The notes: a model not told the origin generated them from the sequence alone. Positions 38,288 to 58,904 are shown, numbered from the stretch's first letter. The stretch is 64,000 nucleotides of DNA from an uncultured Melioribacteraceae bacterium (GCA_965370315.1 CBDUTO010000003.1:13527-77526); one strand, 5' to 3'. Program-made: numbers and translations.

Positions 38288-39093
38288 TATTTCACTTTAG
38301 CTAAAACATTATTTAAAACATCTGGATAGTTTGTAATAATAGCATCAACACCTAGTTCAATCATTCTTTTCATATCTTCTGGTTTATTTACAGTCCAAAC
38401 TGCTACTTCTTTACCATTTGCTTTTGCTTTTTTCATAAATTCGGCATCAACAATTTTATATTTTGTGCTAAGAATATCTACGTCGGCAGTAAATACATCA
38501 ACATCTATGGGAAGTTTGCCAAATATATAGCCAACCTTAGCTTGTTTATTTAATTCACGAATTTTATCAACCTCAGCAAATTTGAAAGATGTAAAAACAA
38601 CTTGGTCTAAAAAATTATTTGCTTCAATAATTTCAAGAGTTCGTTCCGCTAACATTTTCTCATGTTTATTAGTTTTAAGTTCAATGTTTATTTTCATCTT
38701 TCCTTTAACTAATTCTATTACCTCTAGTAATGTAGGCACTGGCTCGTCTTTATATTCTTCAGAAAACCAAGAACCAACATCAATACCTTTCAAGTCAGCA
38801 TATTTTGTTTCCCAAATATTTTTCTCAACTCCACCTGTTCTTTTAAGTGAACCATCGTGAAGAAGTATAATTTCACCATCAACAGTTTCCTGAACATCTA
38901 ACTCGCTCATTTCAGCATTCATTTCAATAGCTTTTTTCATTGACGACAAAGTGTTTTCAGGTGCATAGCCAGAAGCACCACGATGAGCTACAACCACAAC
39001 ATTTTTCTTTTTGGAAACCACATTTCTTTCCTCTTTTGAACAAGCTGTAATTGCAAATAATGTAATTAAAGCTAAAACTGCTATTCGTTTCAT
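38287..39093 (-). CDS. glpQ: Glycerophosphodiester phosphodiesterase lipoprotein
   Basis: VVAHRGASGYAPENTLSSMKKAIEMNAEMSELDVQETVDGEIILLHD is the HR...E.D GDPD signature. I chose the start at ATG 39093 (MKRIAVLALITLFAITAC lipobox, GAGG upstream). The longer track ORF would overlap the upstream gene. Confidence 0.85.
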   Translation of the reverse strand: MKRIAVLALITLFAITACSKEERNVVSKKKNVVVVAHRGASGYAPENTLSSMKKAIEMNAEMSELDVQETVDGEIILLHDGSLKRTGGVEKNIWETKYADLKGIDVGSWFSEEYKDEPVPTLLEVIELVKGKMKINIELKTNKHEKMLAERTLEIIEANNFLDQVVFTSFKFAEVDKIRELNKQAKVGYIFGKLPIDVDVFTADVDILSTKYKIVDAEFMKKAKANGKEVAVWTVNKPEDMKRMIELGVDAIITNYPDVLNNVLAKVK

Positions 39094-39107
39094 ATTAACC
39101 TCTAAGA

Positions 39108-42727: not shown

Positions 42728-45316
42728 TTATTTTAATAACATCATTTTTTTAGCCTGATTAAATCCGTTACTAACTACTTGGTAGAAATAAATTCCAGAT
42801 GAAACTTTACTACCATTATTGCTTATTCCATTCCATGTAAACTGATGGTACCCAGCAGTCAAATTATTATTCACAATAGTAGATACCAATTCTCCATGAA
42901 TATTATAGACTCTTAAACTAACATGCTGAGTAACTGGGATAGCTACTTTTATAACTGTTGAAGGATTAAAAGGATTTGGATAGTTATTATAAAGATTAAA
43001 CTCAGTAGGGAGTTGAGAATTAAATTCATCAACAGAAACAACTAAATCATCTTTTCCATCAATTGTTTGTCCAGGAGTCCAGCTAACTGAATCAATAATT
43101 GAAATCATTTCAACAAAAGGGTCTCCAACACTAATATCACCATCAGGATTTCTTGTTAATGAGTTATTAGCATTCCCTGCCTGGGATGTTTCAACTCTTA
43201 ACTCAAAGTCAATTCCATCAACAACAGAAGAAGTTGGGCCTCCAATATTATTTTTACTGCCATAACCCATATACATATCATAAGATCCGTCTGGAGAAAT
43301 TAACAATGCAAAATCACCACCATTTGCGAGTCCATTACCAACTCCAATACTATCAGAAATAAATACTCTAGTCAATAATAAATCCGAATCGTATCCGGGA
43401 ACATTAGAAATATCGCCACCACCAAAAATAACGACAAAGCTTTTAGGTTCTACGATATATCCATCAGGAAAAGTAAAACTTAAATCTTCATCATCACCAA
43501 GTTTATAACCAGTTAAATCAAAAGGCTCATCCGAAATATTTACTAATTCTACAAATTCATCACCGCTAGACTCTCGTACTCCATCACCGTTTGCGTCACC
43601 ATTGATCGGGTCACCTGCAGGATCTGCTAATATTTCATTGTAAATCAATTTTGGAGTTACTTGAAACTGCTCAATAAATTTCACAGTGAGTTCAACATTA
43701 TTATTAATCAAGATTCCGTATGGATTTCCAACACTCTTATCCCCATCAATGAACCATCCATCTAATACCCAACCATCCGCTGGTACTGCTGTAAAGTTCA
43801 CTGTTGTTCCAACTGGATATGCATCCATAGTTGTATCTTGAAGCGCTTCTCCAGCACCTTCAATAGTTACATCTAAGCTAAAATCAATTGCTTCATTCCC
43901 ATCAACTGTTCTATTAGCAGAATGAAAACGAGCACTATCAGTTACCGTTAATATTTGATTGTACCAATCATCTCCTTCCATTACTCCATCAGGGTTCATA
44001 GTAACTGAGTTGTTTTTACTTGAGGCAGCTGCAGTCTCAGTTCTAAAAATCCAATTAACATCCGAAATATCCCCATCTAAAGTTGGCCCTTCACCCCCAA
44101 ATTTACTTCCATAACCTAAATACATATCATGACTTCCATCTGGAGACAACATAACAATGTAGTCACCACCATTTGCAAGACCATTACCAACACTATCACC
44201 AGGAGCAAAGACTCTTGTTTCCAATAAATCAGAGCTATAACCAGGTACATTTGATACATCTCCGCCACCAAATAATGTGACAAATTCATATGGCTTAATT
44301 ATGTAACCATCTGGGAATTGAAAATTAACTATTTCGTCATCGCCTAATCTCCAACCAGTTAAATCAATGTCTCTTCCACTTACATTTAACAATTCAACAT
44401 ATTCATCTTCTTGTGCGTCTCTAACGCCGTCACCATTTGCATCACCAAATTCTACAGATGCTTCAGGGTCTGCTAAATATTCATTAATTACTATTAACAT
44501 ATCTCTTTCTACATCAACCCAATCAGGAGCATTATTACCAGCAACAAGTGTATCACCTAAGATACCATCAAATCCATTTCCTGTTGCATCTGTGGCAACC
44601 AAGCCAGTACCATCATCAAAATGCCATAGTGCAAGTGTATATTGGTCAGACTGATGGGGAGAAGATTGTGGAGAAAAATTTTCTGTATATCTAGGAGTCA
44701 TCGATATTCTTACTTCATCAATTGTACCTCGGAATGTTTCAAAACGTGTATCGAGTAAATTTATTGAGCCTGATCCAATTGCTATTGCTTGGGTACCTCC
44801 ATGAACTGGTGGACAAGGTGCGGTTACATCATGTTGCACACCATCAATAAATACTCTCATACTATCATCAACATCCCAAACAAAAGCAACATGGTACCAA
44901 CGATCTTCCCAGACTGTTATATCAGGAACAACATCCGTTGTTGCTACACCATCTTGAATGAAATTCTGTAATACACCTTTTCCTCTACCCCAAGATATTC
45001 CCATATCTCCTTCATTATTACCCGAAATATTTTTGCAGAAAAGGTACGTATAATCAGGATCGTGTGTATCTGCTTGTAGAACTGAATCAGGTTTAAACCA
45101 CATTTCAACTGTTCCTTTGTTAACAACAAAAGGCCAATATTGTGCTGCTTGAGGTACAATAACACGGTCGTGATTCCACCATTTGTAATGGAGTGCTTTA
45201 CCCCATTGTGCTTGCATTGCAAGAGGTGCCATGACAAAAAACATAATTGTCAAAATTGCTCTTAATGTTTTGTAACTTTTAGACATAGATACTCCTGTTA
45301 TTTTTAAGTAAATCAT
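42728..45316 (-). CDS. Secreted LamG plus two lamin-tail-domain (LTD) protein with T9SS sorting domain
   Basis: 862 aa. The likely true start is ATG 45286 (MSKSYKTLRAILTIMFFVMAPLAMQAQ). LamG (TVEMWFKPDS...WYHVAFVWD...VFIDG...GTIDEVRI). Two LTD modules (INEYLADPE..GDANGDGVRDAQEDEYVELLNVSGRDIDLTGWRLGDDE and YNEILADPAGD..GDANGDGVRESSGDEFVELVNISDEPFDLTGYKLGDDE). C-terminal NNYPNPFNPSTVIKV...GIYFYQVV. Confidence 0.8.
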   Translation of the reverse strand: MIYLKITGVSMSKSYKTLRAILTIMFFVMAPLAMQAQWGKALHYKWWNHDRVIVPQAAQYWPFVVNKGTVEMWFKPDSVLQADTHDPDYTYLFCKNISGNNEGDMGISWGRGKGVLQNFIQDGVATTDVVPDITVWEDRWYHVAFVWDVDDSMRVFIDGVQHDVTAPCPPVHGGTQAIAIGSGSINLLDTRFETFRGTIDEVRISMTPRYTENFSPQSSPHQSDQYTLALWHFDDGTGLVATDATGNGFDGILGDTLVAGNNAPDWVDVERDMLIVINEYLADPEASVEFGDANGDGVRDAQEDEYVELLNVSGRDIDLTGWRLGDDEIVNFQFPDGYIIKPYEFVTLFGGGDVSNVPGYSSDLLETRVFAPGDSVGNGLANGGDYIVMLSPDGSHDMYLGYGSKFGGEGPTLDGDISDVNWIFRTETAAASSKNNSVTMNPDGVMEGDDWYNQILTVTDSARFHSANRTVDGNEAIDFSLDVTIEGAGEALQDTTMDAYPVGTTVNFTAVPADGWVLDGWFIDGDKSVGNPYGILINNNVELTVKFIEQFQVTPKLIYNEILADPAGDPINGDANGDGVRESSGDEFVELVNISDEPFDLTGYKLGDDEDLSFTFPDGYIVEPKSFVVIFGGGDISNVPGYDSDLLLTRVFISDSIGVGNGLANGGDFALLISPDGSYDMYMGYGSKNNIGGPTSSVVDGIDFELRVETSQAGNANNSLTRNPDGDISVGDPFVEMISIIDSVSWTPGQTIDGKDDLVVSVDEFNSQLPTEFNLYNNYPNPFNPSTVIKVAIPVTQHVSLRVYNIHGELVSTIVNNNLTAGYHQFTWNGISNNGSKVSSGIYFYQVVSNGFNQAKKMMLLK

Positions 45317-45342: not shown

Positions 45343-46125
45343 TTATATTTTATTATAATTTAATTGTAGTGCAAAAAGATTGCTACTCTCTTCATAGGCT
45401 TTCGTTTGAATAGTAAATTTTAATTTATCGGCTCTATAAGAATCTTTGGTATATTCAAATGGTGTTCCGTCTTTTAGAAGAATTAGCCTCGTCATTAGTA
45501 ATAGAGGGGCACCAATATTAATATTTAGCAATTCACTTTCATTTGGAGTAGCAATTGCCGCTTCAATATCTTGGATAGCATTCCCGAGTCTATAAGTTGT
45601 ATGTTGATAAAGTAGATCATATATGGATTCCTTTTCCAAGTCATAATCCAAAAGAGGTTTAAATATTTCGTGTGAATAATAGGACTTCTCTATTATCATT
45701 GGCATATCATTGCCATAGCGAAGACGAATAATTCGAACTACCATTGCATCATCTTTTAACTTCATATGTTTTTTAACTACTGAGTTAGGCTTCTTGATGT
45801 TAATCTCTACAATTCTTCCGGAAGCGGATTTACCATTTTTTTTCATTACTTCAGTGAAGCCCATTAATTGATTTACATCTTGAGCTATCTTATTAGTAGT
45901 AATAAAAGTTCCACGTCCTCGCTCAGAAACAATTAATCCTTGTTGCATCAACGATTTTAATGCTTCCCTAATAGTTCCTCTACTTACTTTATAATAATCA
46001 CAAAGTTCTGTTTCGCTTGGTAGTTTATCACCATTACTGTAAATACCTTCTTCTATTTTATTATAGATATCCTGAAATATTTGAAAGTATCTTGGAATCA
46101 TATTTTTAGCATGAGGTAATAGCAT
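45343..46125 (-). CDS. GntR-family (HutC-type, UTRA effector domain) transcriptional regulator
   Basis: 260 aa. wHTH LPSETELCDYYKVSRGTIREALKSLMQQGLIVSERGRGTFI, followed by a ~150-aa UTRA-like domain. An alternative start at 46101 avoids overlap with glpD. Confidence 0.85.
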   Translation of the reverse strand: MLLPHAKNMIPRYFQIFQDIYNKIEEGIYSNGDKLPSETELCDYYKVSRGTIREALKSLMQQGLIVSERGRGTFITTNKIAQDVNQLMGFTEVMKKNGKSASGRIVEINIKKPNSVVKKHMKLKDDAMVVRIIRLRYGNDMPMIIEKSYYSHEIFKPLLDYDLEKESIYDLLYQHTTYRLGNAIQDIEAAIATPNESELLNINIGAPLLLMTRLILLKDGTPFEYTKDSYRADKLKFTIQTKAYEESSNLFALQLNYNKI

Positions 46126-47755
46126 CTGCTTCTCTCTTGTTATAAATAAATTTTTGATTCAAATTAAAATGATAATTAATTGATTCTTTAAGATTACTAA
46201 TCTCTAACTCTTTACGCCGCTCATCCCAATCTAAAATATTAGACGCAATTTCTGCCATGATTTCGACAGAATTATAGCCCAAGTCTTCATGAGTTCCCAA
46301 AGTGGTTCTTCTCAAGATTATATCTTTTAGGGTTTTAGCCTTTTCCTTTTTAATTGCATAAACAATTTGTGCTTTAATGTCTAAATGCTCTTTAGAAATT
46401 TTTTCACTCAATGATTTATCTTCGTCAGTAAGTTTTAACACATCAATAAACTTATCACCATAATATTGATTAAGCATTAAAATGGTCTCTCTACTAATAT
46501 CATATTTTTCGCTTAACAACTCATAAATGACCGCACCACTTTTCTCTTCAATAAACTTAAAATCTTTGGTTCTACATTTATTTTGAGAATTATTTTTATC
46601 ATCTATATAATCTAGAGTGTCTTCTGCTAAGCTTCTAAAAGTGGTAAGTTTTCCACCAACGATTGAAAAGTAATTTTTCAATCCTTCCTTTTCATGATCA
46701 TGAATAATATGTTTACGTGTAACTTTTTTCTCATTTTTATTTGGTTCAAATGGTAAAGGTCTTATTCCAGAATAAGTGTAGAGTATGTCTTCTCGAGAAA
46801 AAGTTTGCGTATCTATAAAATGATTTAGTTCCGTTAGCAGATAATTTATTTCATCTTCAGATGCAGTTATTCTATCCAAAGTGTTTTTATAAAAGATATC
46901 GGTAGTTCCAACCAAATAATAGTCATCCCAAGGAATAATGAAGAATGGTCTTCCATCCTGCATTGCTTCAATATATAACCCGTTCTCAGGACCATCCTCA
47001 AATCTTCGAATAAGAATGTGGCTTCCTTTTGTCCCCCCCATGAGTCTTGGAATTTTATTTGAAACAGCTTTATTCACTTCATCAACAAAGGGACCTGCTG
47101 CATTAACTATATATTTAGCCTTAGTGGAATATTCAGAATTATTAATAGTATCTTGAAACTTAATTAAATAATTATCACTTTCTAATTTCATACTTTCAAA
47201 TTTGGAGTAGTTTAAAACATCGGCGCCATTTTTTTCAGCTGCAAGAATAGTATCAAGACACAATCTTTCTGGATACTTAATTTGACAATCGTAATAACTT
47301 GCCACCCCTTTTAATCCCTTTCTGTGTAGTGAATTAAGTGACTTTGGAAGCCCTATTCCATCTTTAGCAAATAAAACTTTATGATTTGGCATACTCTTAT
47401 CGTATGATAGAATATCATATAAAATCATTCCCATTTTTATTAACAAAGGCCCACGTTCGCTATGTTTATATAGTGGGAAATCAATTTGAAGGGGCTTAAC
47501 TAGATGAGGTGCATTTTGTAGTAATATCTCTCTCTCTCTTAGTGATTCTCTAACAAGTGAAAATTCCAAATATTCCAGATAGCGTAAACCACCATGAATT
47601 AATTTAGTAGAACCACTTGTAGTAAATCCTCCAAAATCATTTTTTTCTAGAACTAAAACTGAATATCCACGGAGTATTGCATCTAATGCTATACCAGCAC
47701 CGTTTATTCCACCACCAATAATTAAAATATCATAATTTTCTTTTAAGTTTTCCAT
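46106..47755 (-). CDS. glpD: FAD-dependent glycerol-3-phosphate dehydrogenase
   Basis: 549 aa. YDILIIGGGINGAGIALDAILRGYSVLVLEKNDFGGFTTSGSTKLIHGGLRYLE is the GlpD N-terminal signature. It also has the C-terminal alpha-helical GlpD domain. Confidence 0.9.
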   Translation of the reverse strand: MENLKENYDILIIGGGINGAGIALDAILRGYSVLVLEKNDFGGFTTSGSTKLIHGGLRYLEYLEFSLVRESLREREILLQNAPHLVKPLQIDFPLYKHSERGPLLIKMGMILYDILSYDKSMPNHKVLFAKDGIGLPKSLNSLHRKGLKGVASYYDCQIKYPERLCLDTILAAEKNGADVLNYSKFESMKLESDNYLIKFQDTINNSEYSTKAKYIVNAAGPFVDEVNKAVSNKIPRLMGGTKGSHILIRRFEDGPENGLYIEAMQDGRPFFIIPWDDYYLVGTTDIFYKNTLDRITASEDEINYLLTELNHFIDTQTFSREDILYTYSGIRPLPFEPNKNEKKVTRKHIIHDHEKEGLKNYFSIVGGKLTTFRSLAEDTLDYIDDKNNSQNKCRTKDFKFIEEKSGAVIYELLSEKYDISRETILMLNQYYGDKFIDVLKLTDEDKSLSEKISKEHLDIKAQIVYAIKKEKAKTLKDIILRRTTLGTHEDLGYNSVEIMAEIASNILDWDERRKELEISNLKESINYHFNLNQKFIYNKREADAITSC

Positions 47756-47774: not shown

Positions 47775-48842
47775 CTAAAATCCAGCATTAAGAGTAATTC
47801 GCTGTACATACCCAAGTCTTCCCCAATCCGAGTAGGCATAGTTAATTGAAAAGTCAAAAATATTTTCAAAAGGATTCACTATCCCAAATCCAGCAGTAAG
47901 ACCTTTTTCACTATTTTCATCAAATAAAGATTGATAACCAACTCTTAACTGGATTAGATTATTAAAACTATATTCAAACCCAGAATTCAAATAGACGTTG
48001 TTATTACTGGGATGAATCATATCAGAAGCAAAAGTAAACGAATTTCGGTATCCAATATTAAATTGGTACGAGAGACCAAATCTAAAAATTAAAGGTAACG
48101 GAAATGAATCTGTTTTAAGACTAACATTCAGCTTATCGTTAGAGTAATTTTTAGAATCGGCATCATACGCACGAACTAAATCACGTCCGTCCATTTGCAA
48201 ATCGGAACCAAAATTTGAAATACTCGTCCCAATGTTAAATCCTTCTAATTGCGTTTTGTAAAGCACACCAACGTCAATTGCAAAAGATGTTGCCGACTCG
48301 TGCCAAATTTGTTGGGAAATATATTTTCCAGTAATTCCAAACGAAAAACGATCTGTAACTTTCATGGCAAAACTACCTGCCAATGCCATATCAGCCGCTC
48401 TGTAAAACTCTCCTGTTCCTTCCGGTTGCCCAATTGTTCTTACCGGACGTTTATCACCATAGTTCAATCCTGTGTAACTCACTCCCAAAGCAATTCCATT
48501 TCCAATAGGAAAAACTAATCCGAAAAATTGGAATTGAGTATCAGCGAGCCATTCCGAATGATTAATAGTGATATCAACTTTGGAACTATTTGAAATTCCG
48601 GCTGGATTCCAATAAAGAGCCGTTGCATTAGAAGCTAGCGATGAATATGCACCACCCAAAGCTTCTGCTGTAGCACCAATTCCTATTTCTAAAAAGTTTG
48701 CTGCCGATGTTCCAGTTTTGGTAACATCCGGCGAATAATTTAGTTTTGCAAAATCATCTTCGCCAGCTTGTGCAAAGGCGACTGATGAAATTGTAAAAAA
48801 GACAATACATGTTAAATGAAGTAGATTCTTCACCATCCACAA
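47775..48842 (-). CDS. PorV/PorQ-family outer-membrane beta-barrel protein
   Basis: 355 aa with a signal peptide. Family hallmark TSAANFLEIGIGATAEALGGAYSSLASNATALYWNPAGI. Alternating-strand barrel ending in ...LNAGF. Confidence 0.65.
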   Translation of the reverse strand: MWMVKNLLHLTCIVFFTISSVAFAQAGEDDFAKLNYSPDVTKTGTSAANFLEIGIGATAEALGGAYSSLASNATALYWNPAGISNSSKVDITINHSEWLADTQFQFFGLVFPIGNGIALGVSYTGLNYGDKRPVRTIGQPEGTGEFYRAADMALAGSFAMKVTDRFSFGITGKYISQQIWHESATSFAIDVGVLYKTQLEGFNIGTSISNFGSDLQMDGRDLVRAYDADSKNYSNDKLNVSLKTDSFPLPLIFRFGLSYQFNIGYRNSFTFASDMIHPSNNNVYLNSGFEYSFNNLIQLRVGYQSLFDENSEKGLTAGFGIVNPFENIFDFSINYAYSDWGRLGYVQRITLNAGF

Positions 48843-48863
48843 CTCCTATATTCCACTCAAAAT

Positions 48864-51800
48864 TTATTTTATTAAAGCGAACTTGCCTATTTTCTCGCCA
48901 AGTTCAAATGCATCTACATGATAGATGTACATACCAAAAGCTACTGTTAATCCATCTTCCGAAGTTAAATCCCACGATTCGGCTCCATTATCATCGAAGC
49001 TATCACGTAAAATTGTTTTTACCAAAGTGCCACTCATTGTGTACACTCTAATTGTACATTTAGAAGGAAGATTTACAAAATCGATTCTTCTTTCACCCCT
49101 TCCTGAAGCATAGAAGAGTGGTTTTTCCCATGATGCATTAGAAACGTACGGATCAGGAACAACATATATATCCGCTAATTCATCCTTTGCTTTTTCATTG
49201 TCGACTGAATCTGCAACTGCAATGAACTCATAAGTATCATCAGCATTAAAAGGCTTGCTCACTTGAAATTCAAAAATATCCCCTTCAGATGGTGTAAAAA
49301 GCGTAGAATCAGCACCAAATGTTAATCGCATTCCAGTTTTATAATTAAATCCTTGTGCATCAATAGCTATAACAATTTCATCACCGGTATTTAGAACACT
49401 ATCTTGATAGATTGGTTCATCAAAAAGGAAATCGAACTTCTTGTTTGAAGTAGTACTCCAGACTTCAAAGTTCACAGGAACTCTTTGGAATGCAAGAGGT
49501 GCAAAAGAAGTATCTACGCCTGGATACTTAACTCTAACTTCAAAATCCTCTGGTAACTCAATAGTTTTAGGAGAAACGAGTAAACCAGTTTTAACGTCAA
49601 AGTTGGGGTTTCCAATCTTCCATCCTTTATAAACAACTTCAACAGAGTCATTTTCTAAATTATATTTAAGCCCTTCAAATATTTTGCTCTCAAGAAATGT
49701 AGGATCATATACGTCGCTTTTATAAACAATTCTATTTTCTGTGGCATCTTTAATAGTTACACTACTTGTGTATCTACTTAATGTTGTGTCAGTGAATTGA
49801 ACTTGGTAAACATGCCTATTTTTGATTTCATCGGCAACAATAGCATCAACTTTTACAGTTCCGGTAGCGATACCTGTATGAGTAATACCATCAGCAAGAT
49901 GTGGATCAATGTAACCTGCACTTGGGGCATTAGGAACAACAACAGCACAGTTTTGGGATACTGAGACAACATCTCCTACCAAATTTGTTTGGATTGTCTT
50001 ACTACATTCACTCGGTGCCACTGGAGCTAAATTCTCAAGATCAGTTAAACCTCTATCATAAAAATCAACATCATAACCTTTATCGTATGAGACTACAGCA
50101 TAATAGTATGTTCTACCATTTTCAACATTTTCGTCAACATAGCTATAAATAAGTCCATTATCCGTTCCCATATTAAAATTAGCTCCTGTTTCACCAATAG
50201 CAATTGGATGAGGACCTAACAATCCATTTTCGTAATCGAACTGTGCAATTGGCTCCCAAAAGATAGCATTGCCATAGGAATCAGAGATGTTTTTAATACT
50301 ATTAAATGAAGGATCTGTAGAACGATAAATTAAATATCCTTCAAAATCATTTTTGTAAATAGGATCTATTGAATGTTCAGCCCTATCATCCCAAGTTAAA
50401 ATAACTCTTCCATCTTGAGCAGTTGCTTTAACTGTAGGTAACAATGGAGGTTTTGTAAAATTGTAATCAGCATCGTAAATACGTTGCATTGTTCGTTTGT
50501 TTCTAATTATATCATCGTAATCATTTCCAAACAGACATGCTACAGCAAATTTTCTTGTTTCCTCTTGAGGCAGTGAAAAATATCCTGAACCATAAATAAA
50601 AGATAAGTTTCCTGGAAGTGCACCACCAAAATATCCTGGAATCATTTCATTCCAAAGGGTTTCATCGGAGCTAATATTTCCGGCTGGTCTAAGAGTGAAA
50701 CTTGTAAGTCCAATTTGATCTGATTCATCATTATCCGTCTTACCAAAATTAGGTTCTCCTTGGTCAGGATGCCCATTTGCCTCCGTTCCATCTATATCGG
50801 GGGCAGAATAATCTTGTTCGTTAGGTCCAATTCCATCAGAACCAACATCATCATTAATTGGTTCTTTTGGGTCCCAGACACCATTTTCATTTAAATCTTC
50901 GTACACAACCCAATCACCATCTTCATCCCCTTCCCAATGATATTTGGGGTCACCATAATTTCCTATTGGTCCAAAGATATAACTTCCTGCATCATTAGTT
51001 TGAACCTCATTAATTAAACCATCGTTGTCATCATCAATTCCATTAAGTGGTTCACCTGGGCTTTCAAGAAATGCAAATCCAAAATAACCAACTCCAGGAC
51101 GACCTTTGTTATCTATTCCATCTAAATCCCAGCAATATGTAATATCATCATCTTCTTCAAAATACGCATCATCATCTTGTGAATCTCCTTCACCACCAAC
51201 TGCAGGATCAACGTACATTCCAAATACAACTTTTTCCAACTCTTTATCACTAGCATTTTTTATATCATATCTATTTATTAGAATATCTTCAGCTTCAACT
51301 TGTACCCACTGATAACCTCTAACTTTTACTTCAAGTCCAAGTCCTCTTCTTCCATTTGGGAACCCAGCAGAATCAGTAGAACTTCCAACATAAGGGAAAT
51401 AAGCAAACTCATCATTATTTCTATCATCCATAACATAATAACTTTCTTGGTCGGCGCGAGGATATGCACCAAACTCACCATTCCACATCCCATCCCTCGA
51501 ACCCGGAGTTCCAGGGTAATCATTAACCCACTCAGTTGGCCATGTTTCTGGTTTGTGACTCATTGCAGGATAGCTATTTATATTATCAAGTCCTGTATTA
51601 TAATATCCGGGAAGGGGTTCCCATCCATAAGTGTGCGTACCATCTGGGGCAATATCAAAAGATCCTGGATTAGTATAGTTTTCTGACATTATATGAATTT
51701 TCTTTCCAGAGGTATCAATAACCTCTGCACCAGCAATCATAATAAACTCATACCCATACCAAGTTCCCGATCCTTTGGGCCATTCCATTTTAGGAGGTTC

Positions 51801-51998
51801 GTATCTGCTGCCTAGATTTCCAAAATTACCAAATCTAGTATAGACAAGATTACCATCATGCACTCCTGTTCTTCTATCTTGAATAGAATTCAGTTTTGCT
51901 AATTGGTTATTTTGGGAAGAATTATCCTCCTGTGCAAAGAAAACAATCGGGGAAATAATTGTAAATAATAGCAATTTAGTGAGTAAAGCTTTTATCAT
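48864..51998 (-). CDS. Large secreted protein of unknown function with acidic Ca-binding-like D-x-D-x-D stretches and a T9SS-like C-terminal beta-sandwich
   Basis: 1044 aa with a signal peptide. Acidic repeats (GIDDDNDGLINE, EGDEDGDWVVYEDLNENGVWDP, INDDVGSDGIGPNEQDY, DIDGTEANGHPDQGEPNFGKTDNDESDQ). C-terminal ...CTIRVYTMSGTLVKTI...GMYIYHVDAFELGEKIGKFALIK. Confidence 0.6.
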   Translation of the reverse strand: MIKALLTKLLLFTIISPIVFFAQEDNSSQNNQLAKLNSIQDRRTGVHDGNLVYTRFGNFGNLGSRYEPPKMEWPKGSGTWYGYEFIMIAGAEVIDTSGKKIHIMSENYTNPGSFDIAPDGTHTYGWEPLPGYYNTGLDNINSYPAMSHKPETWPTEWVNDYPGTPGSRDGMWNGEFGAYPRADQESYYVMDDRNNDEFAYFPYVGSSTDSAGFPNGRRGLGLEVKVRGYQWVQVEAEDILINRYDIKNASDKELEKVVFGMYVDPAVGGEGDSQDDDAYFEEDDDITYCWDLDGIDNKGRPGVGYFGFAFLESPGEPLNGIDDDNDGLINEVQTNDAGSYIFGPIGNYGDPKYHWEGDEDGDWVVYEDLNENGVWDPKEPINDDVGSDGIGPNEQDYSAPDIDGTEANGHPDQGEPNFGKTDNDESDQIGLTSFTLRPAGNISSDETLWNEMIPGYFGGALPGNLSFIYGSGYFSLPQEETRKFAVACLFGNDYDDIIRNKRTMQRIYDADYNFTKPPLLPTVKATAQDGRVILTWDDRAEHSIDPIYKNDFEGYLIYRSTDPSFNSIKNISDSYGNAIFWEPIAQFDYENGLLGPHPIAIGETGANFNMGTDNGLIYSYVDENVENGRTYYYAVVSYDKGYDVDFYDRGLTDLENLAPVAPSECSKTIQTNLVGDVVSVSQNCAVVVPNAPSAGYIDPHLADGITHTGIATGTVKVDAIVADEIKNRHVYQVQFTDTTLSRYTSSVTIKDATENRIVYKSDVYDPTFLESKIFEGLKYNLENDSVEVVYKGWKIGNPNFDVKTGLLVSPKTIELPEDFEVRVKYPGVDTSFAPLAFQRVPVNFEVWSTTSNKKFDFLFDEPIYQDSVLNTGDEIVIAIDAQGFNYKTGMRLTFGADSTLFTPSEGDIFEFQVSKPFNADDTYEFIAVADSVDNEKAKDELADIYVVPDPYVSNASWEKPLFYASGRGERRIDFVNLPSKCTIRVYTMSGTLVKTILRDSFDDNGAESWDLTSEDGLTVAFGMYIYHVDAFELGEKIGKFALIK

Positions 51999-52015
51999 TT
52001 ATTTAATTCCTATAA

Positions 52016-54730
52016 TTAAAATTCAAATTTAAATCCAACTAATACTCTGCGAGGTGCAAGATAATAATCAGGACGGTTATCAATTTCAGCCAATGTAAAA
52101 TTTGGATTTTTTTCAACTTGTGCTAATGTAACTGATGAACGATATGGTGCATCCGAAACTCCTGTACTTGAATAAACATAGCGAGAACTGAGATTATCCA
52201 AAAGATTAAATACTTTAACAAATAATTGGATATTATGATTTGATATTTCAAAATTCTTAAAGAAATTCAAATCGATATTAAAAATACTAGGTTTCAATTC
52301 GCTATTTTGGAATTGCTCGGTTAGTTCACTACTTGGGTTACTTGGAGTATATGGTTGACCGGAGGCGAATCGACCAATTACTCCAAGCGACCAATCTGTG
52401 TAATCACCAACATAAAACGATACGTTTAATGTGTGAGTTTGATCCCAACTTAAAGGAATCACTTGTTTTTCACTTTCCGTAGGAGGATTTGATTGAAAAT
52501 TTGTAAATACCGAATTAGGATCTGAAGCGTTACCCTTTGCAACTTGATAGGTATAATCTATCGAGGCAAAAAAAGCATCTAAATTAACTGTCCTTAATGC
52601 AAAAGTTATTCCTTTAACATTTCCGTAATCTCTATTTATATAACGTGCATATACTTTTTTATCTTCTGTATTTATTATTTCTTGACTTAACAGATTTTTT
52701 ATATCTTTGTAATACATTGTTAAATCAAAACTAATTGTACTTCCTAAGGTTTGTTGTAATCCTAACTCATAGTTTACAGTCTGCTCAGGTTTTAAGTTAG
52801 CATTGCCCATAACTGTATTCAATCCACCAAGATCAACTTCAAATTCTGAGTTAGAAAAAATTGCTGAAAATTTTGGTAATTGATAAAAATGCCCATAAGA
52901 AACATGTACAACTCCCGTTGCTGAAATAGGGTAGGCTAAACCAAAACGAGGACTAATGCTAAATTGAGTTTCTGCATCCTTGAATTCTGTGTCGAGTCTT
53001 ACTCCATTATTAGGGTCAGTTGTTGCTCGTGGATTTACTGGAACAACAGCATCGGGATTCCAATAATCAAGACGAACACCAGCATTTACAATTAGCTCAT
53101 CTAACTCCAATTTATCTTGAATATAAAAAGCGGCTTCAAATGGTTTATTTATATATTGATTGTTAAGAGATGTGTTTTCAGCAGGAATTCTTAAAGTTGG
53201 TTGTTCATATACAGGTCCATCTGCTACAGTTGAAGCCGTAAAATAGTCAAGCGTGTGTTGCTTCGCCATTCCACCAACCTTAACTTGATTAACTTTGTTT
53301 ACTTGGCTTGTCAAATCTAATTTAACATTTATAGCCGAATTAGAGATATCAGAACGTGAGTTATTTGTTCCACCAAATGCAAATGATTGGTCAACATGAG
53401 GTGTTCCCTGATATCTTGAATCCAACATATCTTCAAATAGATAGCTTTGAATTCTTTGTTTGAAATATGTTAAATTTAACACATAAAAAGTTCTCGCAGA
53501 TAAAACATGATTTAGACTAAGAATGTGATTGAAGTTATTATTGTAATTTGTTTTCACTCCATCAGGTGAATACCGTCTATAATCACTATAGCTTTTATAC
53601 TCACTAGTATTATAAAAAAGAGAATATCTTAAAGTAATACTGTTAGATAGTTTTGTGGATATTTTTCCATATAGAGCTATTTTTTCTAGGGGATTTAATG
53701 GGATAAACTCTCCATCGCCTGTTTTAAGAGAATCGGGAACTTTTATTCCAAATACCCTTTCATCGTCACTTTGATTCTTCTCTGCATCAAGAATATATTC
53801 CTGAATTGGGACAGTATCTTCAATTCTAGTTTCTCTTTTCCCATAAAGCCAACCTTCTCTCGTATGGTAACGTAAAGAACCAAAATAAGATGTTTTAGGA
53901 ATTAATGGGACAGGTCCTTGAAGATTTAACGAGGCATCTAATTCATTCAAATTCAAATTATCATTGTTCATAAAGACATCATTATGAGAAGTTACATAAT
54001 CGCCAAATGCAATTGATGCACTTCCACCAAATTTTGCTCTTCCTTCTTTTGTAACAATATTTACCACTCCAGATTGTGCTTGTCCGTATTCTGCATTAAA
54101 AGTTCCGCTAATAACTTGCATTTCCTGTACCCAGTTATTTTCCATTCCCACCGAGCTTCCACCTCTAAACTGATCAGTAACCGAAACACCATCAATTAAG
54201 TAATTAATTTCTCCACTTCTTCCACCACGAATATGAATTTTACCATCAGATCCTTTTACAACTCCAGCTTGCAATTGAAGAACTTCCGAAACTTCCTGGA
54301 CTGGCAAATTATTAATTTGTTCGGAGGAGATATATGCTGCAGTATTTGTTCTATCCATTTCAATTGTGGGACGAACACCCGAGATTACAACTTCACTTGT
54401 AGAAATAGAAACACTTCGTAGAAAAATGTTTTGTTTAGTAGTTCTATCTGTTAATATTTCAACATTCGTAATTGTTTGTTTCTGATACCCAATATAAGAG
54501 ATAATTAAGTTATATTTTCCTGGAGGAATATTCAAGATAAAATAATTTCCATCAAAATCAGTTGAACTTCCATAAGTTGTACCCTCCAGCATGACATTAG
54601 CACCAATTAAAGGTTCGTTTGTGTCGGCGTCTATAATTATACCAGTAATTTTTCCTGTAACTCCGGCAAAAATATTACAAGTAAAAATAAACCCGAAAAG
54701 GAATAAAAAAGTAAATCTTCTAATCATCAA
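52016..54730 (-). CDS. TonB-dependent receptor with N-terminal carboxypeptidase-regulatory-like domain
   Basis: 904 aa. GKITGIIIDADTNEPLIGANVMLEGTTYGSSTDFDGNYFILNIPPGKYNLIISYIGYQ, plug (GKIHIRGGRSGEINYLIDGV), long barrel ending ...LVGFKFEF. Confidence 0.85.
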   Translation of the reverse strand: MMIRRFTFLFLFGFIFTCNIFAGVTGKITGIIIDADTNEPLIGANVMLEGTTYGSSTDFDGNYFILNIPPGKYNLIISYIGYQKQTITNVEILTDRTTKQNIFLRSVSISTSEVVISGVRPTIEMDRTNTAAYISSEQINNLPVQEVSEVLQLQAGVVKGSDGKIHIRGGRSGEINYLIDGVSVTDQFRGGSSVGMENNWVQEMQVISGTFNAEYGQAQSGVVNIVTKEGRAKFGGSASIAFGDYVTSHNDVFMNNDNLNLNELDASLNLQGPVPLIPKTSYFGSLRYHTREGWLYGKRETRIEDTVPIQEYILDAEKNQSDDERVFGIKVPDSLKTGDGEFIPLNPLEKIALYGKISTKLSNSITLRYSLFYNTSEYKSYSDYRRYSPDGVKTNYNNNFNHILSLNHVLSARTFYVLNLTYFKQRIQSYLFEDMLDSRYQGTPHVDQSFAFGGTNNSRSDISNSAINVKLDLTSQVNKVNQVKVGGMAKQHTLDYFTASTVADGPVYEQPTLRIPAENTSLNNQYINKPFEAAFYIQDKLELDELIVNAGVRLDYWNPDAVVPVNPRATTDPNNGVRLDTEFKDAETQFSISPRFGLAYPISATGVVHVSYGHFYQLPKFSAIFSNSEFEVDLGGLNTVMGNANLKPEQTVNYELGLQQTLGSTISFDLTMYYKDIKNLLSQEIINTEDKKVYARYINRDYGNVKGITFALRTVNLDAFFASIDYTYQVAKGNASDPNSVFTNFQSNPPTESEKQVIPLSWDQTHTLNVSFYVGDYTDWSLGVIGRFASGQPYTPSNPSSELTEQFQNSELKPSIFNIDLNFFKNFEISNHNIQLFVKVFNLLDNLSSRYVYSSTGVSDAPYRSSVTLAQVEKNPNFTLAEIDNRPDYYLAPRRVLVGFKFEF

Positions 54731-54885
54731 TTCACCATCAAAATATTGAGAATAATTTGGAATAACACATTATTGTATATATGTATGGTTGTCTATACAA
54801 CTACACAAAGTTACACATATATTTTTAATTGTCAAACTAATTATGTTTTTAAATTATAGCTATACAGTGTTGGAGTGTGAAGGCC

Positions 54886-56220
54886 TGTCCCTGTTCATTT
54901 GCTCATCCACATCTAAAAACTAACAAATTCCACTTATTTCCACAATAGGATTTCATATTTTTACACCATCCTAAACAAACCATTACTCAAAAATGATTAA
55001 ATCTCTCTTTGCTTTCATTCTCAATCTTTTCAAATCAAAAACACAACTACAATTAGAAAATATATTCCTCAGAAAACAATTGGAAATAGTTAGCAGATCG
55101 AATAAAAGATCTGTAATAAAACGAAGTGATAGAGTTTTCTTCAGCTTATCAAAAGGATTACTTAATAATTGGAAAGAAAATCTTGTAATTGTAAAACCAG
55201 AGACTGTTATTAAATGGCATAGACAAGGGTTCAAACTATTCTGGAAAATGAAAAGTAAACACAAAGGTGGAAGAGAAAGAGTAGATGCTGAGACTAGAAA
55301 GTTAATCATTCAAATAGCTAAAGAGAATAGCTCATGGGGTATTCCTAGAATACATGGTGAAATAGTAAAGCTTGGATACAACATTTCTCAATCAACTGTT
55401 TTTAGATATCTGCAAAACTTAAGAAGAAGGAAGCCTTCTCAGAACTGGAAAACATTTTTAAGGAATCACTCCAAAGAAACTATCTCAATGGATCTCTTCG
55501 CTGTACCAACTTCTAATTTTAAGTTATTACATGTGCTAGTAATGATTGAGCATCATAGAAGAAAAATAATTCATTTCAATGTTACTGAACATCCAACTTC
55601 TATTTGGACAGCTCAACAAATGAGAAATGCTCTTTATGAAGAGAACTCCTATAAGTATGTGATTAGAGATAGAGATTGTAAATTCGGGAAGTATTTTGGT
55701 AGGAAGATTTCTGATATTGGTATTAAAGAAATTGTTACTGCTTATAGATCTCCTTGGCAAAACGGATATGTTGAAAGAGTGATTGGGACGATTAGAAGAG
55801 AATGCCTTGATCACTTCATAGTTTTCAACGAAGCCCATCTCAGAGAAATTCTTAAAGAATATTTTTATTACTACAATAAATTTCGAACACATTTGGGGTT
55901 GGATAAAGATACTCCGAAAAGGAGACCAATAGAATCAATTGGAAAAATAGCTAATATTCCTATTCTTAATGGTCTACATAATATTTATTTCAGAGAAGCT
56001 GTTTAAGTTTTTATGAAGGACAAAACAACTTCACAATGAGAAGGTCTTTAAGACCAGTGCATTTCCATATCTATTTTTAGTGAAAATCAAAATAATTAGA
56101 CAATATCAAACCAAACAAATCTGAATTAGACCGAACATTCAAAACTAAGAAGCAACAATATTAATACTAAGTAGAGATTCTTGCAGAAATTCAGAACAGA
56201 TTAGGTTTTGGATAGGGACA
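54886..56220 (+). mobile_element. Intact IS481-like insertion sequence (1335 bp)
   Basis: Terminal inverted repeats tgtccctgttca... and ...tggatagggaca bracket a single 337-aa DDE (rve) transposase gene. I see no target-site duplication at these boundaries. Confidence 0.8.
54993..56006 (+). CDS. IS481-family-like DDE transposase (integrase core / rve domain)
   Basis: 337 aa. N-terminal HTH region with ...VIVKPETVIKWHRQGFKLFWKMKSK. Catalytic core ISMDLFAVP...VIRDRDCKFG...SPWQNGYVERVIGTIRRECLDH. Confidence 0.9.
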   Translation: MIKSLFAFILNLFKSKTQLQLENIFLRKQLEIVSRSNKRSVIKRSDRVFFSLSKGLLNNWKENLVIVKPETVIKWHRQGFKLFWKMKSKHKGGRERVDAETRKLIIQIAKENSSWGIPRIHGEIVKLGYNISQSTVFRYLQNLRRRKPSQNWKTFLRNHSKETISMDLFAVPTSNFKLLHVLVMIEHHRRKIIHFNVTEHPTSIWTAQQMRNALYEENSYKYVIRDRDCKFGKYFGRKISDIGIKEIVTAYRSPWQNGYVERVIGTIRRECLDHFIVFNEAHLREILKEYFYYYNKFRTHLGLDKDTPKRRPIESIGKIANIPILNGLHNIYFREAV

Positions 56221-56472: not shown

Positions 56473-57951
56473 TTACTTTAGTTGGGTAACCTTGAAATGA
56501 TATAAACCTGCTCCATCTGTTGCAATCCAAGCATCTCCTTTGGAATCAAAAGCTACATCAAATATTCCCCAAGCTTTTAATGGTGAATTTCGTATGTTGT
56601 AATATTCTCGATTATAATAATTGGTAAAAATATATAAACCGTTTCTGCTAGCAATCCATTTTTCATTACCGTTTTTAATTTTTATATTATAAACATCTAT
56701 TCCCCTCAATGATGTATATCTGCTATTATTAAATTTGTTATCACTAAAACTAAAAGTAGTTAAACCTGCCATTGCATCAGGTTCCACAATTGAATTCCCA
56801 AACCAAACTGCATCTTCGGCAATTGTAACACAATTATAAAAAGTATGTATAGAAGGTGGATCTAGCTCTGCGAAAAACCGCTCCCCATACTTACTACCAT
56901 CCAAATGTAACAACCCATTAGTTTTGTGAGTTACCCAGATATCATTTTCATCTATTACAGCTATATCTGTAAACCAATTTGCATAAGGATATGTATCAAA
57001 TCTTGTGACTTTCCACGCATTGTTTGATGATATTCCCAAACCATTTTTTGTAGCAATAATTTTTCTACCATCTTCCAGAAACTCAATATCTTCAACCCAA
57101 TTATCCGGAAATGTTGGACTTGTCCCTAAACCTTCATTAATCCATACGCTACCATTATACTTACTTATACCACTGTTTGTTGCAAACCATTTATTATTGT
57201 CTTTATCAACTTTAATACTATTGATAACCATACCAGCTAATCCTGAGTTTTCGATGGAGTAGTATTGCCATTCTCTGCCATCATAACTTGATACACCTTT
57301 TTTAGAACCAACCCAAACGACATCATTTTGATCAACTGCAACTGAAGAAAGAAAATTGTCATGTATTCCTGATGTCTTATCAGAATAATCAACCCAATAT
57401 GTTGTATCAGCTAATTCTAATTTAACTTTCGATATTTGACTACTGTGGACAGGAATTAAAACACTATCAGACCTATGATTCTCTTTTTTAAAAACAAAAT
57501 AAAATTCACCAGGTTTAATACTTGACATTGAAAAAGGTGTAGTGCCAATAAATTTGTTCTGAAAATAGACTTCTACATTATTAGGAGCAGATGAAAAATC
57601 GGCATTCCCCAACATCGATGAATTTTTATAGTAATCAATAAAAATCATTTGAATTGAATCTTCCAAGGGATGAACCACAAAGGAAGTATCTTTGTGATAT
57701 TTCTTCTTTAATGTAAAAGAATACTCTCTTTCTTGCAACCAATTAAGTGTATCTGGTGTTTTGACACCTGAAATCCTCCCATCTTCATAGATACTTGCAC
57801 CACCAGGTTCCGATTTAATTATAACTAAAACCACTGGGACTGGCGTAACTGGTGGACTTACAGATATATCCTGCTCACAACTGTATGATAGTATTAAAAC
57901 AAATAAGGAAGCACTAATTATAATTATATTATTTCTCATTTTAAATCTCAT
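56473..57951 (-). CDS. Lipoprotein with PEGA-like domains and a two-component-regulator-propeller-type beta-propeller
   Basis: 492 aa. Lipobox-like LILSYSC. PEGA-like IKSEPGGASIYEDGRISGVKTP and VEVYFQNKFIGTTP. Reg_prop-like repeats (VWVGSKKGVSSYDGREW, NNKWFATNSGISKYNGSVW, KWIASRNGLYIF, DAWIATDGAGLYHF). Confidence 0.6.
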   Translation of the reverse strand: MRFKMRNNIIIISASLFVLILSYSCEQDISVSPPVTPVPVVLVIIKSEPGGASIYEDGRISGVKTPDTLNWLQEREYSFTLKKKYHKDTSFVVHPLEDSIQMIFIDYYKNSSMLGNADFSSAPNNVEVYFQNKFIGTTPFSMSSIKPGEFYFVFKKENHRSDSVLIPVHSSQISKVKLELADTTYWVDYSDKTSGIHDNFLSSVAVDQNDVVWVGSKKGVSSYDGREWQYYSIENSGLAGMVINSIKVDKDNNKWFATNSGISKYNGSVWINEGLGTSPTFPDNWVEDIEFLEDGRKIIATKNGLGISSNNAWKVTRFDTYPYANWFTDIAVIDENDIWVTHKTNGLLHLDGSKYGERFFAELDPPSIHTFYNCVTIAEDAVWFGNSIVEPDAMAGLTTFSFSDNKFNNSRYTSLRGIDVYNIKIKNGNEKWIASRNGLYIFTNYYNREYYNIRNSPLKAWGIFDVAFDSKGDAWIATDGAGLYHFKVTQLK

Positions 57952-58904
57952 TCACTTTTATAATACCCAAAACTATTTACATAGTCTTTTGATAAAAATA
58001 TTTCAAATTCTTGAGTTATATAAGAACCAAATACTCCAAAACCATTCTCAATATTACTATAATCCCCTTCATCAAGCCCAATGGCAAATGAATTATCCTC
58101 CAAACCTACTGTAAAATAATAGGTTGAAAGGTTTTTATCAAAAACAGACAATTCAAGTAACATAGAAGTAATTGTATAATTCTTTTTTTCAGAATCATTT
58201 ATTGAAATATCCTCCATAGCTTCTGAAATAATATCAAAATCATATTCTATTGAATAATCCCTTGAGAGTAATGGATAAATATATTCAGTTGCATTATCAA
58301 TTTTCATTTTTTTCCAAGGAATTATCTTCATCTTCCTAGTATATAAACCATTTTCTTTCTCTACATAGTTTATTAAAAGCTTTGGTAAATAAACTTGATC
58401 TGGATTTTGGATTATCCAGGTTGTTGTTAGATACCCCTTCGATAAAAGTGTAACGCTAGTATCACTTCTATCTTCGTTCCTCAGCACTTCCGTTGGAACT
58501 AAAGTATTTGAACTTAACCTTCTTCCATTTGGTAATAAAGCTTCTATTTCTAAAATATCACCTTCATTTGGAATGAAATCATTAACATAATAATATTTAA
58601 TGTCTGATTTATATCTGGACGTATCTGTTCTTTCCATTGTTGAATCTCCAAAAATAAAAAGCTCATCGCTCCCTCTCCACAGCCTAATAAGTGCTCCATC
58701 AATAAAGGAGTCCTCAGTATTTTCAAATGGATTAATATTGGAAACGTCGTAACTTTTATAAGCTGTAGCTACTTGAAATGATGAATCACCACGGATAATA
58801 CAGTTTAATGAATATCTCTCTTCATAAGGTGCTTTTGGACTGAAACTTTCATCACAAGAAATAAATATTGTGAGAATGATAATTGTAAAAAAAATAATTC
58901 TCAT
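57948..58904 (-). CDS. DUF4249-like lipoprotein (typical TonB-receptor companion in Bacteroidota)
   Basis: 318 aa. Lipobox IFISC. The size, N-terminal pattern and position directly downstream of a CarboxypepD_reg-type TonB receptor fit DUF4249. The call rests on context plus weak motif memory. Confidence 0.45.
   Translation of the reverse strand: MRIIFFTIIILTIFISCDESFSPKAPYEERYSLNCIIRGDSSFQVATAYKSYDVSNINPFENTEDSFIDGALIRLWRGSDELFIFGDSTMERTDTSRYKSDIKYYYVNDFIPNEGDILEIEALLPNGRRLSSNTLVPTEVLRNEDRSDTSVTLLSKGYLTTTWIIQNPDQVYLPKLLINYVEKENGLYTRKMKIIPWKKMKIDNATEYIYPLLSRDYSIEYDFDIISEAMEDISINDSEKKNYTITSMLLELSVFDKNLSTYYFTVGLEDNSFAIGLDEGDYSNIENGFGVFGSYITQEFEIFLSKDYVNSFGYYKSE

Follow-up and report, generated by a model that had tools for sequence, protein, structure and literature searches.

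Three adjacent genes stand at the head of a run of 14 co-directional genes, extending to 32454, in the stretch of DNA considered here: they encode a TonB-dependent transporter (TBDT), a large secreted protein that belongs to no named family and that we call BIG, and an outer-membrane barrel of the PorV/PorQ family. The stretch as a whole, which we refer to as the window, is 64,000 nt from an uncultured Melioribacteraceae bacterium (GCA_965370315.1 CBDUTO010000003.1:13527-77526), and positions are counted from its start. The three genes, hereafter the trio, all lie on the minus strand, with intergenic gaps of 17 bp between TBDT and BIG and 21 bp between BIG and the barrel:

52016-54730, minus strand: TBDT, 904 aa, with a signal peptide, a CarboxypepD_reg-like N-terminal domain, a Plug and a 22-strand-type barrel
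48864-51998, minus strand: BIG, 1044 aa, an acidic secreted non-lipoprotein with no named family
47775-48842, minus strand: PorV/PorQ-family outer-membrane barrel, 355 aa, apparently dedicated to the trio

The TBDT and BIG open reading frames (ORFs) were called from TTG codons, and the true starts may be ATGs one and two codons downstream.

A preliminary description of this DNA had given the same ORFs, coordinates and gaps, and had called the genes a CarboxypepD_reg-type TonB receptor, a 1044-aa secreted protein with acidic calcium-binding-like stretches, and a PorV/PorQ-family barrel. Every particular of that observation is correct: Pfam agrees about the first gene, the acidic motifs of the second can be read directly, and the third scores 193.5 bits with the NCBIfam PorV/PorQ family model NF033709 (cut-off 90). 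The receptor carries PF13715, PF07715 (40 bits, cut-off 23.9) and PF00593 (101 bits, cut-off 27), so that 52016-54730 has the Plug followed by a receptor β-barrel that marks a TonB-dependent transporter. The SusC/RagA model TIGR04056 gives 97.1 bits, below its cut-off of 368, and that match is limited to residues 27-241, the N-terminal domain and plug. To what group of receptors, then, does it belong? The 11 top matches to it in its own genome (206-565 bits) are all linked to trios and the next receptor scores just 92 bits, so that, judged by sequence, the trio receptors form a separate TBDT subfamily.

Is the trio a unit or a chance neighbourhood? The order TBDT-BIG-barrel recurs in about 80 loci of Ignavibacteria, Marinimicrobia/Fidelibacterota, Rhodothermales, Calditrichota and KSB1, and because the same gene order is found in so many loci of several phyla, the linkage is far beyond chance. 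Directly upstream of BIG, a TBDT homologue is present in 60 of 65 testable cases, separated from it by a few to about 30 bp, and the next gene downstream is a barrel homologue in 62 of 75. Loss of synteny in other genomes, which the preliminary description had named as an outcome that would count against it, thus did not occur. Where a case was scored as an exception, the cause was often an ORF-start overlap or a local rearrangement that left the partner inside the cluster. The rearranged forms include receptor-barrel-cargo-BIG (L041), receptor-BIG-BIG-barrel (L043, L044), and a cargo gene inserted ahead of the barrel; the order receptor-barrel-BIG is seen in the window's own genome (C17:28025-35706, L090). 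In three KSB1-type loci (L004, L027, L029) the genes that come after the trio encode series of FG-GAP/UnbV_ASPIC proteins with type IX secretion system (T9SS) tails; there a 355-aa gene after the first FG-GAP/UnbV_ASPIC gene, at the place expected of the barrel, is so divergent that neither the phmmer query nor the precomputed Pfam annotation picked it up. A scan of one genome per species found at least 588 BIG-encoding stretches, often several per genome, and those listed come from Ignavibacteria, Fidelibacterota/Marinimicrobia, Rhodothermales, Calditrichota and KSB1.

The window's own genome (an assembly of 4.41 Mb, 97% complete) has eight clear trios and three divergent ones, the paralogues being 24-42% identical. 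Across 62 distinct trios, pairwise distances correlate at 0.94 for receptor and BIG, 0.86 for BIG and barrel, and 0.91 for receptor and barrel, and the nearest neighbour is shared between components in 63-73% of cases, against 1.6% by chance. These correlations and shared neighbours lead us to conclude that the trio duplicates and diverges as a unit. A partition in which the BIG tail tracks the barrel and the BIG head tracks the receptor was considered and rejected, since in a segment-wise mirror-tree analysis every BIG segment tracks the receptor. We favor, with modest confidence, the reading that the trio is one outer-membrane nutrient-import module, in which BIG, held by its private barrel, captures substrate for the TBDT or caps it, and that the window copy, a member of an old orthogroup, serves a glycerol-phosphate substrate.

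What do the other trios of this genome serve? Five were examined: four have glycan-active genes as neighbors, the fifth peptidoglycan-active ones. The neighbors are two GH3 plus CBM9 cargo; GH26 cargo, CBM9 cargo and an acetylesterase; GHL10 cargo; and F5/8-type-C cargo, the last with a gene for a ROK-like regulator upstream (read from its N-terminal sequence). The fifth trio (C14:15397-27381, L087) is accompanied by genes for an amidase_3/Golvesin_C protein and for an S13 D-Ala-D-Ala carboxypeptidase, which hints at a peptidoglycan-fragment substrate and not a plant or algal glycan. The own-genome trio loci are like polysaccharide utilization loci (PULs), built on a different core.

SusC/SusD is the textbook route of polymer capture and import in Bacteroidota, and the trio probably does a SusC/SusD-like job. 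One might ask, therefore, how the trio is distributed in relation to SusD and to the T9SS. In a sample of 301 genomes of the phylum, BIG is found in 126. The SprA translocon is present in all 126 of these, and BIG is found in none of the 64 SprA-negative genomes, a test that is phylogenetically confounded, as the 20 SprA-negative genomes listed are all from one family. No SusD_RagB protein (PF07980) is found in the window's own 97%-complete genome, and in its class 40 of the 52 BIG-positive genomes are without SusD. Over the whole sample, BIG and SusD occur together in 73 genomes and are both missing from 84, with BIG but no SusD in 53 and SusD but no BIG in 91; among the 57 genomes with at least seven SusD, just three have BIG. 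A strict complementarity, in which BIG would mark genomes that lack SusD, is rejected by the 73 genomes with both, and the two systems are better described as alternatives in emphasis that are not strictly exclusive.

BIG has a type-I signal peptide and no lipobox, a pI of 4.27, and 16.5% aspartate plus glutamate. It finds no sequence match in Pfam, NCBIfam or the PDB. More than 3000 homologues are present in a collection of 5.8 billion proteins, where all the named ones are called 'hypothetical protein', and 559 clusters of a 50%-identity library match BIG at E<=1e-30. Because a lipobox is missing in 60 of 62 BIGs, the protein needs an anchor other than lipid. Its parts are as follows:

50439-51893, minus strand: residues 36-520, predicted large β-super-sandwich that packs the acidic loops (AF2 pLDDT 88.7, pTM 0.88)
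50703-51056, minus strand: residues 315-432, acidic loops of calcium-binding type (direct reading and motif count)
49929-50438, minus strand: residues 521-690, conserved fibronectin type III (FN3)-like sandwich with an insertion (AF2 pLDDT 55-89)
49179-49928, minus strand: residues 691-940, about three fast-evolving immunoglobulin (Ig)-like sandwiches, a stalk or specificity region (AF2 pLDDT 80-92)
48867-49178, minus strand: residues 941-1044, variant T9SS-type C-terminal domain

The full-length AF2 model is poor in the N-terminal half (pLDDT 67), and a model of the N-terminal part from a deeper alignment was used there instead. Residues 315-432 consist to 37% of aspartate, glutamate and asparagine, and contain DDDNDG (322), DLNENG (368) and the EF-hand-like DEDGDWVVYED (358). 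Conservation was expressed as the density of invariant columns, that is, the fraction of columns at least 95% identical across 62 BIG paralogues. The acidic region has the highest density at 0.21, followed by the tail (0.20) and residues 521-690 (0.19), and the Ig-like region 691-940 has 0.03; between orthologues, too, identity in the Ig-like region is just 29-49%. Residues 41-120 are 87% identical among orthologues and 39% identical among paralogues, and to judge from this pattern they are the best candidate for a specificity determinant. Foldseek matches of the full-length model are mostly generic FN3 chains. The head (36-520) matches glycan phosphorylases and hydrolases of families GH94, GH116 and GH149 and a cyclic-glucan synthase (E 1e-5 to 1e-3, TM about 0.3). 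In our reading of the Foldseek output, which comes without aligned regions, these matches probably reflect the non-catalytic N-terminal β-sandwich domains of those enzymes. An enzymatic role for BIG is rejected for now: the matches are weak, and no part of BIG matches a catalytic domain.

How might such a protein be held at the surface? The last 105 or so residues form a β-sandwich in the AF2 model. When the BIG tail is compared with a profile of the genome's own type-A T9SS tails, hhalign aligns the last 66 residues with a probability of 95% and E 3e-8, and a model built from the same type-A tails scores BIG at 14 bits (E 0.008). Type-B tail models (CHU_C / TIGR04131) find no match in BIG. 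The preliminary description had spoken of a T9SS-like C-terminal β-sandwich; the fold and the profile comparison favor this, and the standard sorting-domain models leave the tail unmatched. The BIG tail departs from the ordinary type-A tails of this genome, which read NYPNPFNPST-I-F-LP, in its first strand and in an insertion. In the window BIG, the tail runs from VVPDPY through a conserved insertion (...SGRGERRIDFVNLP) to a type-A-like sandwich ending GKFALIK, and among the BIG tails compared, VVPNPY is followed by a conserved insertion some 15-20 residues long that closes with RGER-I-F-NLP, and the terminus is GKFALIK. Partners in the divergent trios (755 and 1145 aa) have a looser form of the pattern, without RGER, and the 1145-aa one extends about 10 residues beyond ...LAII. 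The BIG tail thus appears to be a distinct conserved subclass, homologous to type-A T9SS tails.

The own genome contains 11 ORFs with the variant tail and 190 with ordinary tails. A PorV-family gene lies within 60 bp of 10 of the 11; for the ordinary tails, the count is 8 of 190, even within 3 kb, and we read these eight as cargo genes of the same trio loci. Among the genomic arguments for joint action of variant tail and private barrel, this one-to-one pairing is, we suggest, the strongest. As a separate matter, with some 190 ordinary type-A tail ORFs the predicted T9SS secretome is very large for a genome of 4.4 Mb.

Acting together need not mean staying together. BIG might be a released or loosely bound shuttle, like a hemophore or a free binding protein, with the barrel serving as a private T9SS export adaptor, as SprF does for SprB, and not as a permanent anchor. 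The pairing of tail to barrel suits an export adaptor as well as it suits an anchor, and there is precedent in T9SS cargo with type-B tails, special-tail substrates which are encoded beside cognate PorP/SprF-like barrels (PMC10202324). The tail of BIG is however among its most conserved segments, as would be expected of a lasting interface more than of a cleaved signal, and a multi-domain protein of 1044 residues with an Ig-like stalk resembles a tethered surface protein; neither point is decisive. We give the shuttle little credence, and prefer that BIG remains on its barrel as part of the import module.

Is the barrel simply PorV or PorQ of the core secretion system? Besides the family model mentioned above, it scores above the cut-off with Pfam PorV PF19572 (29.8 bits, cut-off 27), and falls below the cut-offs of the specific models for PorV (NF033710, 63 vs 250), PorQ (NF033711, 92.8 vs 220) and PorV2 (NF052325, 74.3 vs 325). 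Elsewhere in the genome there are a PorQ (249 bits vs 220), a PorV-like gene (238 vs 250) and a PorV2-like gene (216 vs 325). In a maximum-likelihood tree, these three housekeeping genes and a fourth unlinked paralogue are set apart from the trio barrels with support of 91/88. The window barrel lies in a clade (100/99) with orthologues of other Ignavibacteria, sister (98/96) to the Rhodothermales orthologues. The unlinked PorV-family paralogues are on long branches, and their exact placement is uncertain; one on contig C97 groups with a divergent trio barrel. A grouping of the barrel with housekeeping PorV/PorQ was the other result that the preliminary description had said would count against its proposal, and it did not occur, as the genes are separate and so are their branches. 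By these scores and this tree, the trio barrel appears to be a dedicated PorV paralogue, neither housekeeping PorV nor PorQ.

We turn to the genes that surround the window trio. Orthologues of the window BIG in Marinimicrobia and Rhodothermales are 57-63% identical to it, much closer than its paralogues in its own genome. Downstream of the trio the following genes are found:

46106-47755, minus strand: glycerol-3-phosphate dehydrogenase GlpD (NF008899, 371 bits, above the cut-off of 360)
45343-46125, minus strand: GntR/HutC-type regulator with UTRA domain, likely the local regulator (Pfam GntR and UTRA)
42728-45316, minus strand: T9SS cargo with LamG, two lamin-tail domains (LTD) and an ordinary type-A tail (Pfam); signature neighbor of the orthogroup
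40676-42655, minus strand: T9SS cargo with LamG, an unknown domain and a type-A tail (Pfam)
39108-40652, minus strand: SurA/PrsA-like peptidyl-prolyl isomerase (PPIase) lipoprotein (Pfam Rotamase family; lipobox LLLSSC)
38287-39153, minus strand: GDPD lipoprotein (Pfam; best match NF006989, 143 bits vs a cut-off of 264)
37628-38287, minus strand: SGNH esterase (Pfam)
36763-37641, minus strand: secreted 292-aa protein with no Pfam or NCBIfam match
35849-36766, minus strand: HAD-IB hydrolase (Pfam)
34478-35830, minus strand: GlpT-like carrier of the major facilitator superfamily (MFS) (best match TIGR00712, 455 bits vs a cut-off of 633)
32454-34478, minus strand: purple-acid-phosphatase-like metallophosphoesterase with a T9SS tail (Pfam)

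The LTD/LamG cargo gene is downstream in all 23 orthologous loci with enough flank and in none of 40 paralogous loci, and the second LamG cargo gene is present in 21 of the 23 and again in none of the 40. GlpD, GDPD, the GlpT-like MFS carrier and purple-acid-phosphatase-like phosphoesterases recur nearby, often linked, in Ignavibacteria, Marinimicrobia and Rhodothermales. This neighborhood of GlpD, GDPD, GlpT-like carrier and phosphoesterases suggests, as the most likely substrate of the window copy, a compound that contains glycerol phosphate: glycerophosphodiesters derived from phospholipids, or else poly(glycerol phosphate) of teichoic-acid type.

The other side of the trio has a different character. 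At 263 bp upstream of where the receptor begins there is an intact transposase gene (54993-56006, plus strand; HTH_32 and rve_3 integrase core), and one further feature was listed between this insertion sequence and the receptor start:

54853-54881, minus strand: promoter-like site TTCACA-17-TATAAT (11 of 12 positions; consensus scan only)

The site persists between the transposase gene and the trio operon. The scan of the region for sigma-70 promoters and terminators gave site counts no higher than in shuffled sequence and is uninformative. Beyond the transposase gene, a receptor operon of another kind (56473-61144, minus strand) encodes a TonB-dependent receptor (CarboxypepD_reg and Plug), a DUF4249 protein and a PEGA-domain protein, without BIG or barrel.

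The cargo genes bring up a second possibility. BIG and the barrel might serve the T9SS cargo enzymes of the locus as a scaffold or attachment station at the surface, in the way of a local PorZ/PorQ or PorU/PorV pair, or might organize a utilisome; the receptor would then import independently, and BIG would be neither lid nor capture protein. Ordinary-tail cargo genes do adjoin several trios, with two in the window, others in Rhodothermales, Marinimicrobia and KSB1 loci, and more beside four of the five other own-genome trios examined, and a conserved BIG head argues against substrate-specific binding. The full-length BIG model also gives weak Foldseek matches to PorU (6za2) and PorZ (5m11), but these are at TM <0.1, and neither a peptidase nor a propeller domain such as PorU and PorZ have was found in BIG. 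Moreover, of BIG and the barrel, it is BIG that is more closely in step with the receptor (r 0.94; partial r 0.65-0.69 given the barrel), and the BIG gene is almost always immediately 3' of the receptor gene. We regard the scaffold as unlikely, and retain a role for BIG in import itself.

The SurA-like PPIase brings up a third. In 29 of 62 loci a homologue lies within 9 kb on the downstream side of BIG, which makes it a frequent fourth gene of the module; it often comes right after the barrel, and in the window glpD, the regulator and the two cargo genes come between and set it about 7 kb further downstream. Might BIG, the barrel and the PPIase assist in the assembly or quality control of receptors of this class, akin to an extracellular dome of the β-barrel assembly machinery (BAM), with no part in transport? 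In the BAM complex of Bacteroidota, the FadL-like 14-strand barrel BamG holds the extracellular BamH, and the extracellular lipoproteins and PPIases that it holds help to build complexes of barrels with surface proteins (PMC12578637). The likeness would be that the extracellular loops of a 14-strand barrel hold a large extracellular protein beside another barrel, with PPIases associated. BamG and BamH are however single-copy housekeeping proteins that are not paired with TBDTs in nutrient loci, and homology with the trio is rejected, BamG being of the FadL/Toluene_X family and BamH a lipoprotein. It would also be costly, for a generic aid, that each receptor paralogue has kept its own BIG and barrel over a divergence as long as that seen within this one genome. 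We give this explanation hardly any credence, and return to the import module.

How would the module work? We infer the following course. BIG would be exported by Sec and cross the outer membrane through the T9SS, recognized by way of its variant C-terminal domain. It would then be held at the cell surface, its uncleaved tail remaining on the dedicated PorV-family barrel in the manner of PorU on PorV and PorZ on PorQ; the BamG barrel with its extracellular BamH is a further precedent (PMC12578637). Beside the TBDT, which would be the energized channel, the calcium-loaded β-super-sandwich head would capture substrate or cap the channel and pass the substrate on, which is the job that SusD does for SusC. 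The SurA-like lipoprotein might help in assembly. At the window locus, the surface cargo (the lamin-tail/LamG proteins and the phosphoesterase) would bind and cut the substrate and the trio would import the pieces; a periplasmic GDPD would then free glycerol-3-phosphate, the GlpT-like carrier would take it in, and GlpD would oxidize it.

Several observations weigh against this reading. The GlpT-like carrier and the GDPD protein score under the equivalog cut-offs (455 vs 633 and 143 vs 264 bits), and the substrate has been assigned from the gene neighborhood only. Paralogues with different substrates share a strongly conserved BIG head, and to judge from the sequences such a head would be easier to reconcile with a cap or structural role than with a specific binding site. 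In the segment-wise co-evolution analysis the partial correlation of BIG tail and barrel, given the TBDT, is -0.07, with no specific signal. The standard T9SS tail models of Pfam and NCBIfam (TIGR04183 / PF18962) give no match to BIG at E<=0.01. The coexistence of SusD and BIG in 73 of the 301 genomes means that BIG is not a simple SusD replacement. Finally, one variant-tail protein, on contig C39, has no barrel gene nearby. In that locus (C39:3056-10522, minus strand) the variant-tail protein of 1073 aa comes after a 787-aa receptor and two small lipoproteins, with an OPT-like transporter gene next; the module may here have a variant form without a barrel.

The preliminary description had proposed that the triad may be a SusCD-like uptake unit, with a PorV-held T9SS protein as the lid in place of a lipoprotein. 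This is supported in part: the paralogues within the genome lie beside glycan genes, SusD is absent here, the components have diversified together, and the variant tail is paired with a barrel. Two elements have had to change, as the holder would be a dedicated PorV paralogue rather than PorV, and the window copy is tied to glycerol-phosphate and organophosphate genes, not glycans; nor do the trio and SusD stand apart across the phylum. We class the trio as a probable TonB-dependent nutrient-import unit with a surface partner.

A wider proposition may be put forward tentatively, and we would at present sooner doubt it than rely on it. A stable complex of receptor, BIG and barrel may be a general nutrient importer of the Fibrobacterota-Chlorobiota-Bacteroidota (FCB) group outside Bacteroidia. 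Its variant tail (VVPNPY, an RGER-containing insertion and a type-A-like sandwich) would be a third class of T9SS sorting domain, never released by the cognate PorV paralogue, so that secretion would amount to permanent anchoring of a lid. The window orthogroup would in that case be an importer, spanning phyla, of polymers or diesters of glycerol phosphate, a 'PUL' for something other than glycans.

The preliminary description had remarked that such an arrangement had not been seen characterized, and full-text literature searches likewise found no paper that describes the trio; the genome papers of Melioribacter roseus and Caldithrix abyssi make no mention of it. New here are the one-to-one match, across the genome, of variant tails to barrels, a head fold predicted with confidence, the cross-tabulation with SprA and SusD, and the glycerol-phosphate orthogroup that spans phyla. 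The module reaches far, with 126 of 301 sampled genomes, at least 559 clusters at 50% identity, and up to 11 copies per genome. Ignavibacteria, Marinimicrobia, Calditrichota, KSB1 and many Rhodothermales, which live in sediments, oceans, hot springs and bioreactors, mostly have no SusD or few copies, and the trio is a strong candidate for the SusC/SusD-type job in these sister lineages. If true, the proposal would link type IX secretion directly to nutrient uptake and would add a new sorting-domain class with a private barrel. The window copy would extend the idea from glycans to the turnover of organic phosphorus and glycerol phosphate, and as the locus is kept across three phyla, the hypothesis is testable in cultured relatives. 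One cultured organism that carries a trio is Rosettibacter primus (L074).

How does the trio compare with systems that are known? PorU-PorV and PorZ-PorQ offer the model for retention, as uncleaved T9SS tails are there retained on a 14-strand barrel of the PorV family (review PMC10202324). As in those pairs, a large secreted protein has a tail proposed to stay on a PorV-family barrel, and the trio barrel matches the PorV/PorQ model; it is however a separate paralogue, present in 8-11 copies per genome and always beside a TBDT, and BIG shares neither the propeller of PorZ nor the peptidase domain of PorU. SprB-SprF of Flavobacterium johnsoniae is alike in having a special class of tail whose bearer is encoded beside its own outer-membrane barrel. 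The BIG tail, in contrast, seems to be a type-A derivative and not type B, the trio barrel is of the PorV/PorQ and not the PorP/SprF family, and the pair is coupled to a transporter, whereas SprB-SprF is coupled to gliding adhesins.

In its substrate, the window copy recalls the PusCD 'phosphate utilisation systems' of Flavobacterium, which are Pi-induced, lie beside phosphodiesterases, phosphomonoesterases and inner-membrane organophosphate carriers, and are proposed to import organic phosphorus (Lidbury et al., PMC8115612). Both are TonB-dependent systems with organophosphate genes, those of the window locus being GDPD, the phosphoesterases, the GlpT-like carrier and GlpD. The partner in PusCD is a SusD-family lipoprotein, whereas that of the window receptor would be BIG with its barrel.

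The closest parallel in general plan is SusC/SusD (RagA/RagB) itself. In both, a CarboxypepD_reg-like TBDT gene is followed directly by the gene of a large surface partner, the pair is multiplied within the genome, and it heads substrate-specific degradation loci with local regulators. The trio differs in that its receptor fails the SusC/RagA model (97 vs 368 bits), and in that SusD, a tetratricopeptide-repeat lipoprotein, is absent from the genome and has as its counterpart a 1044-aa protein with an all-β head, no lipobox and a T9SS-type tail. It differs also in having a third obligatory gene, that of the PorV-family barrel.

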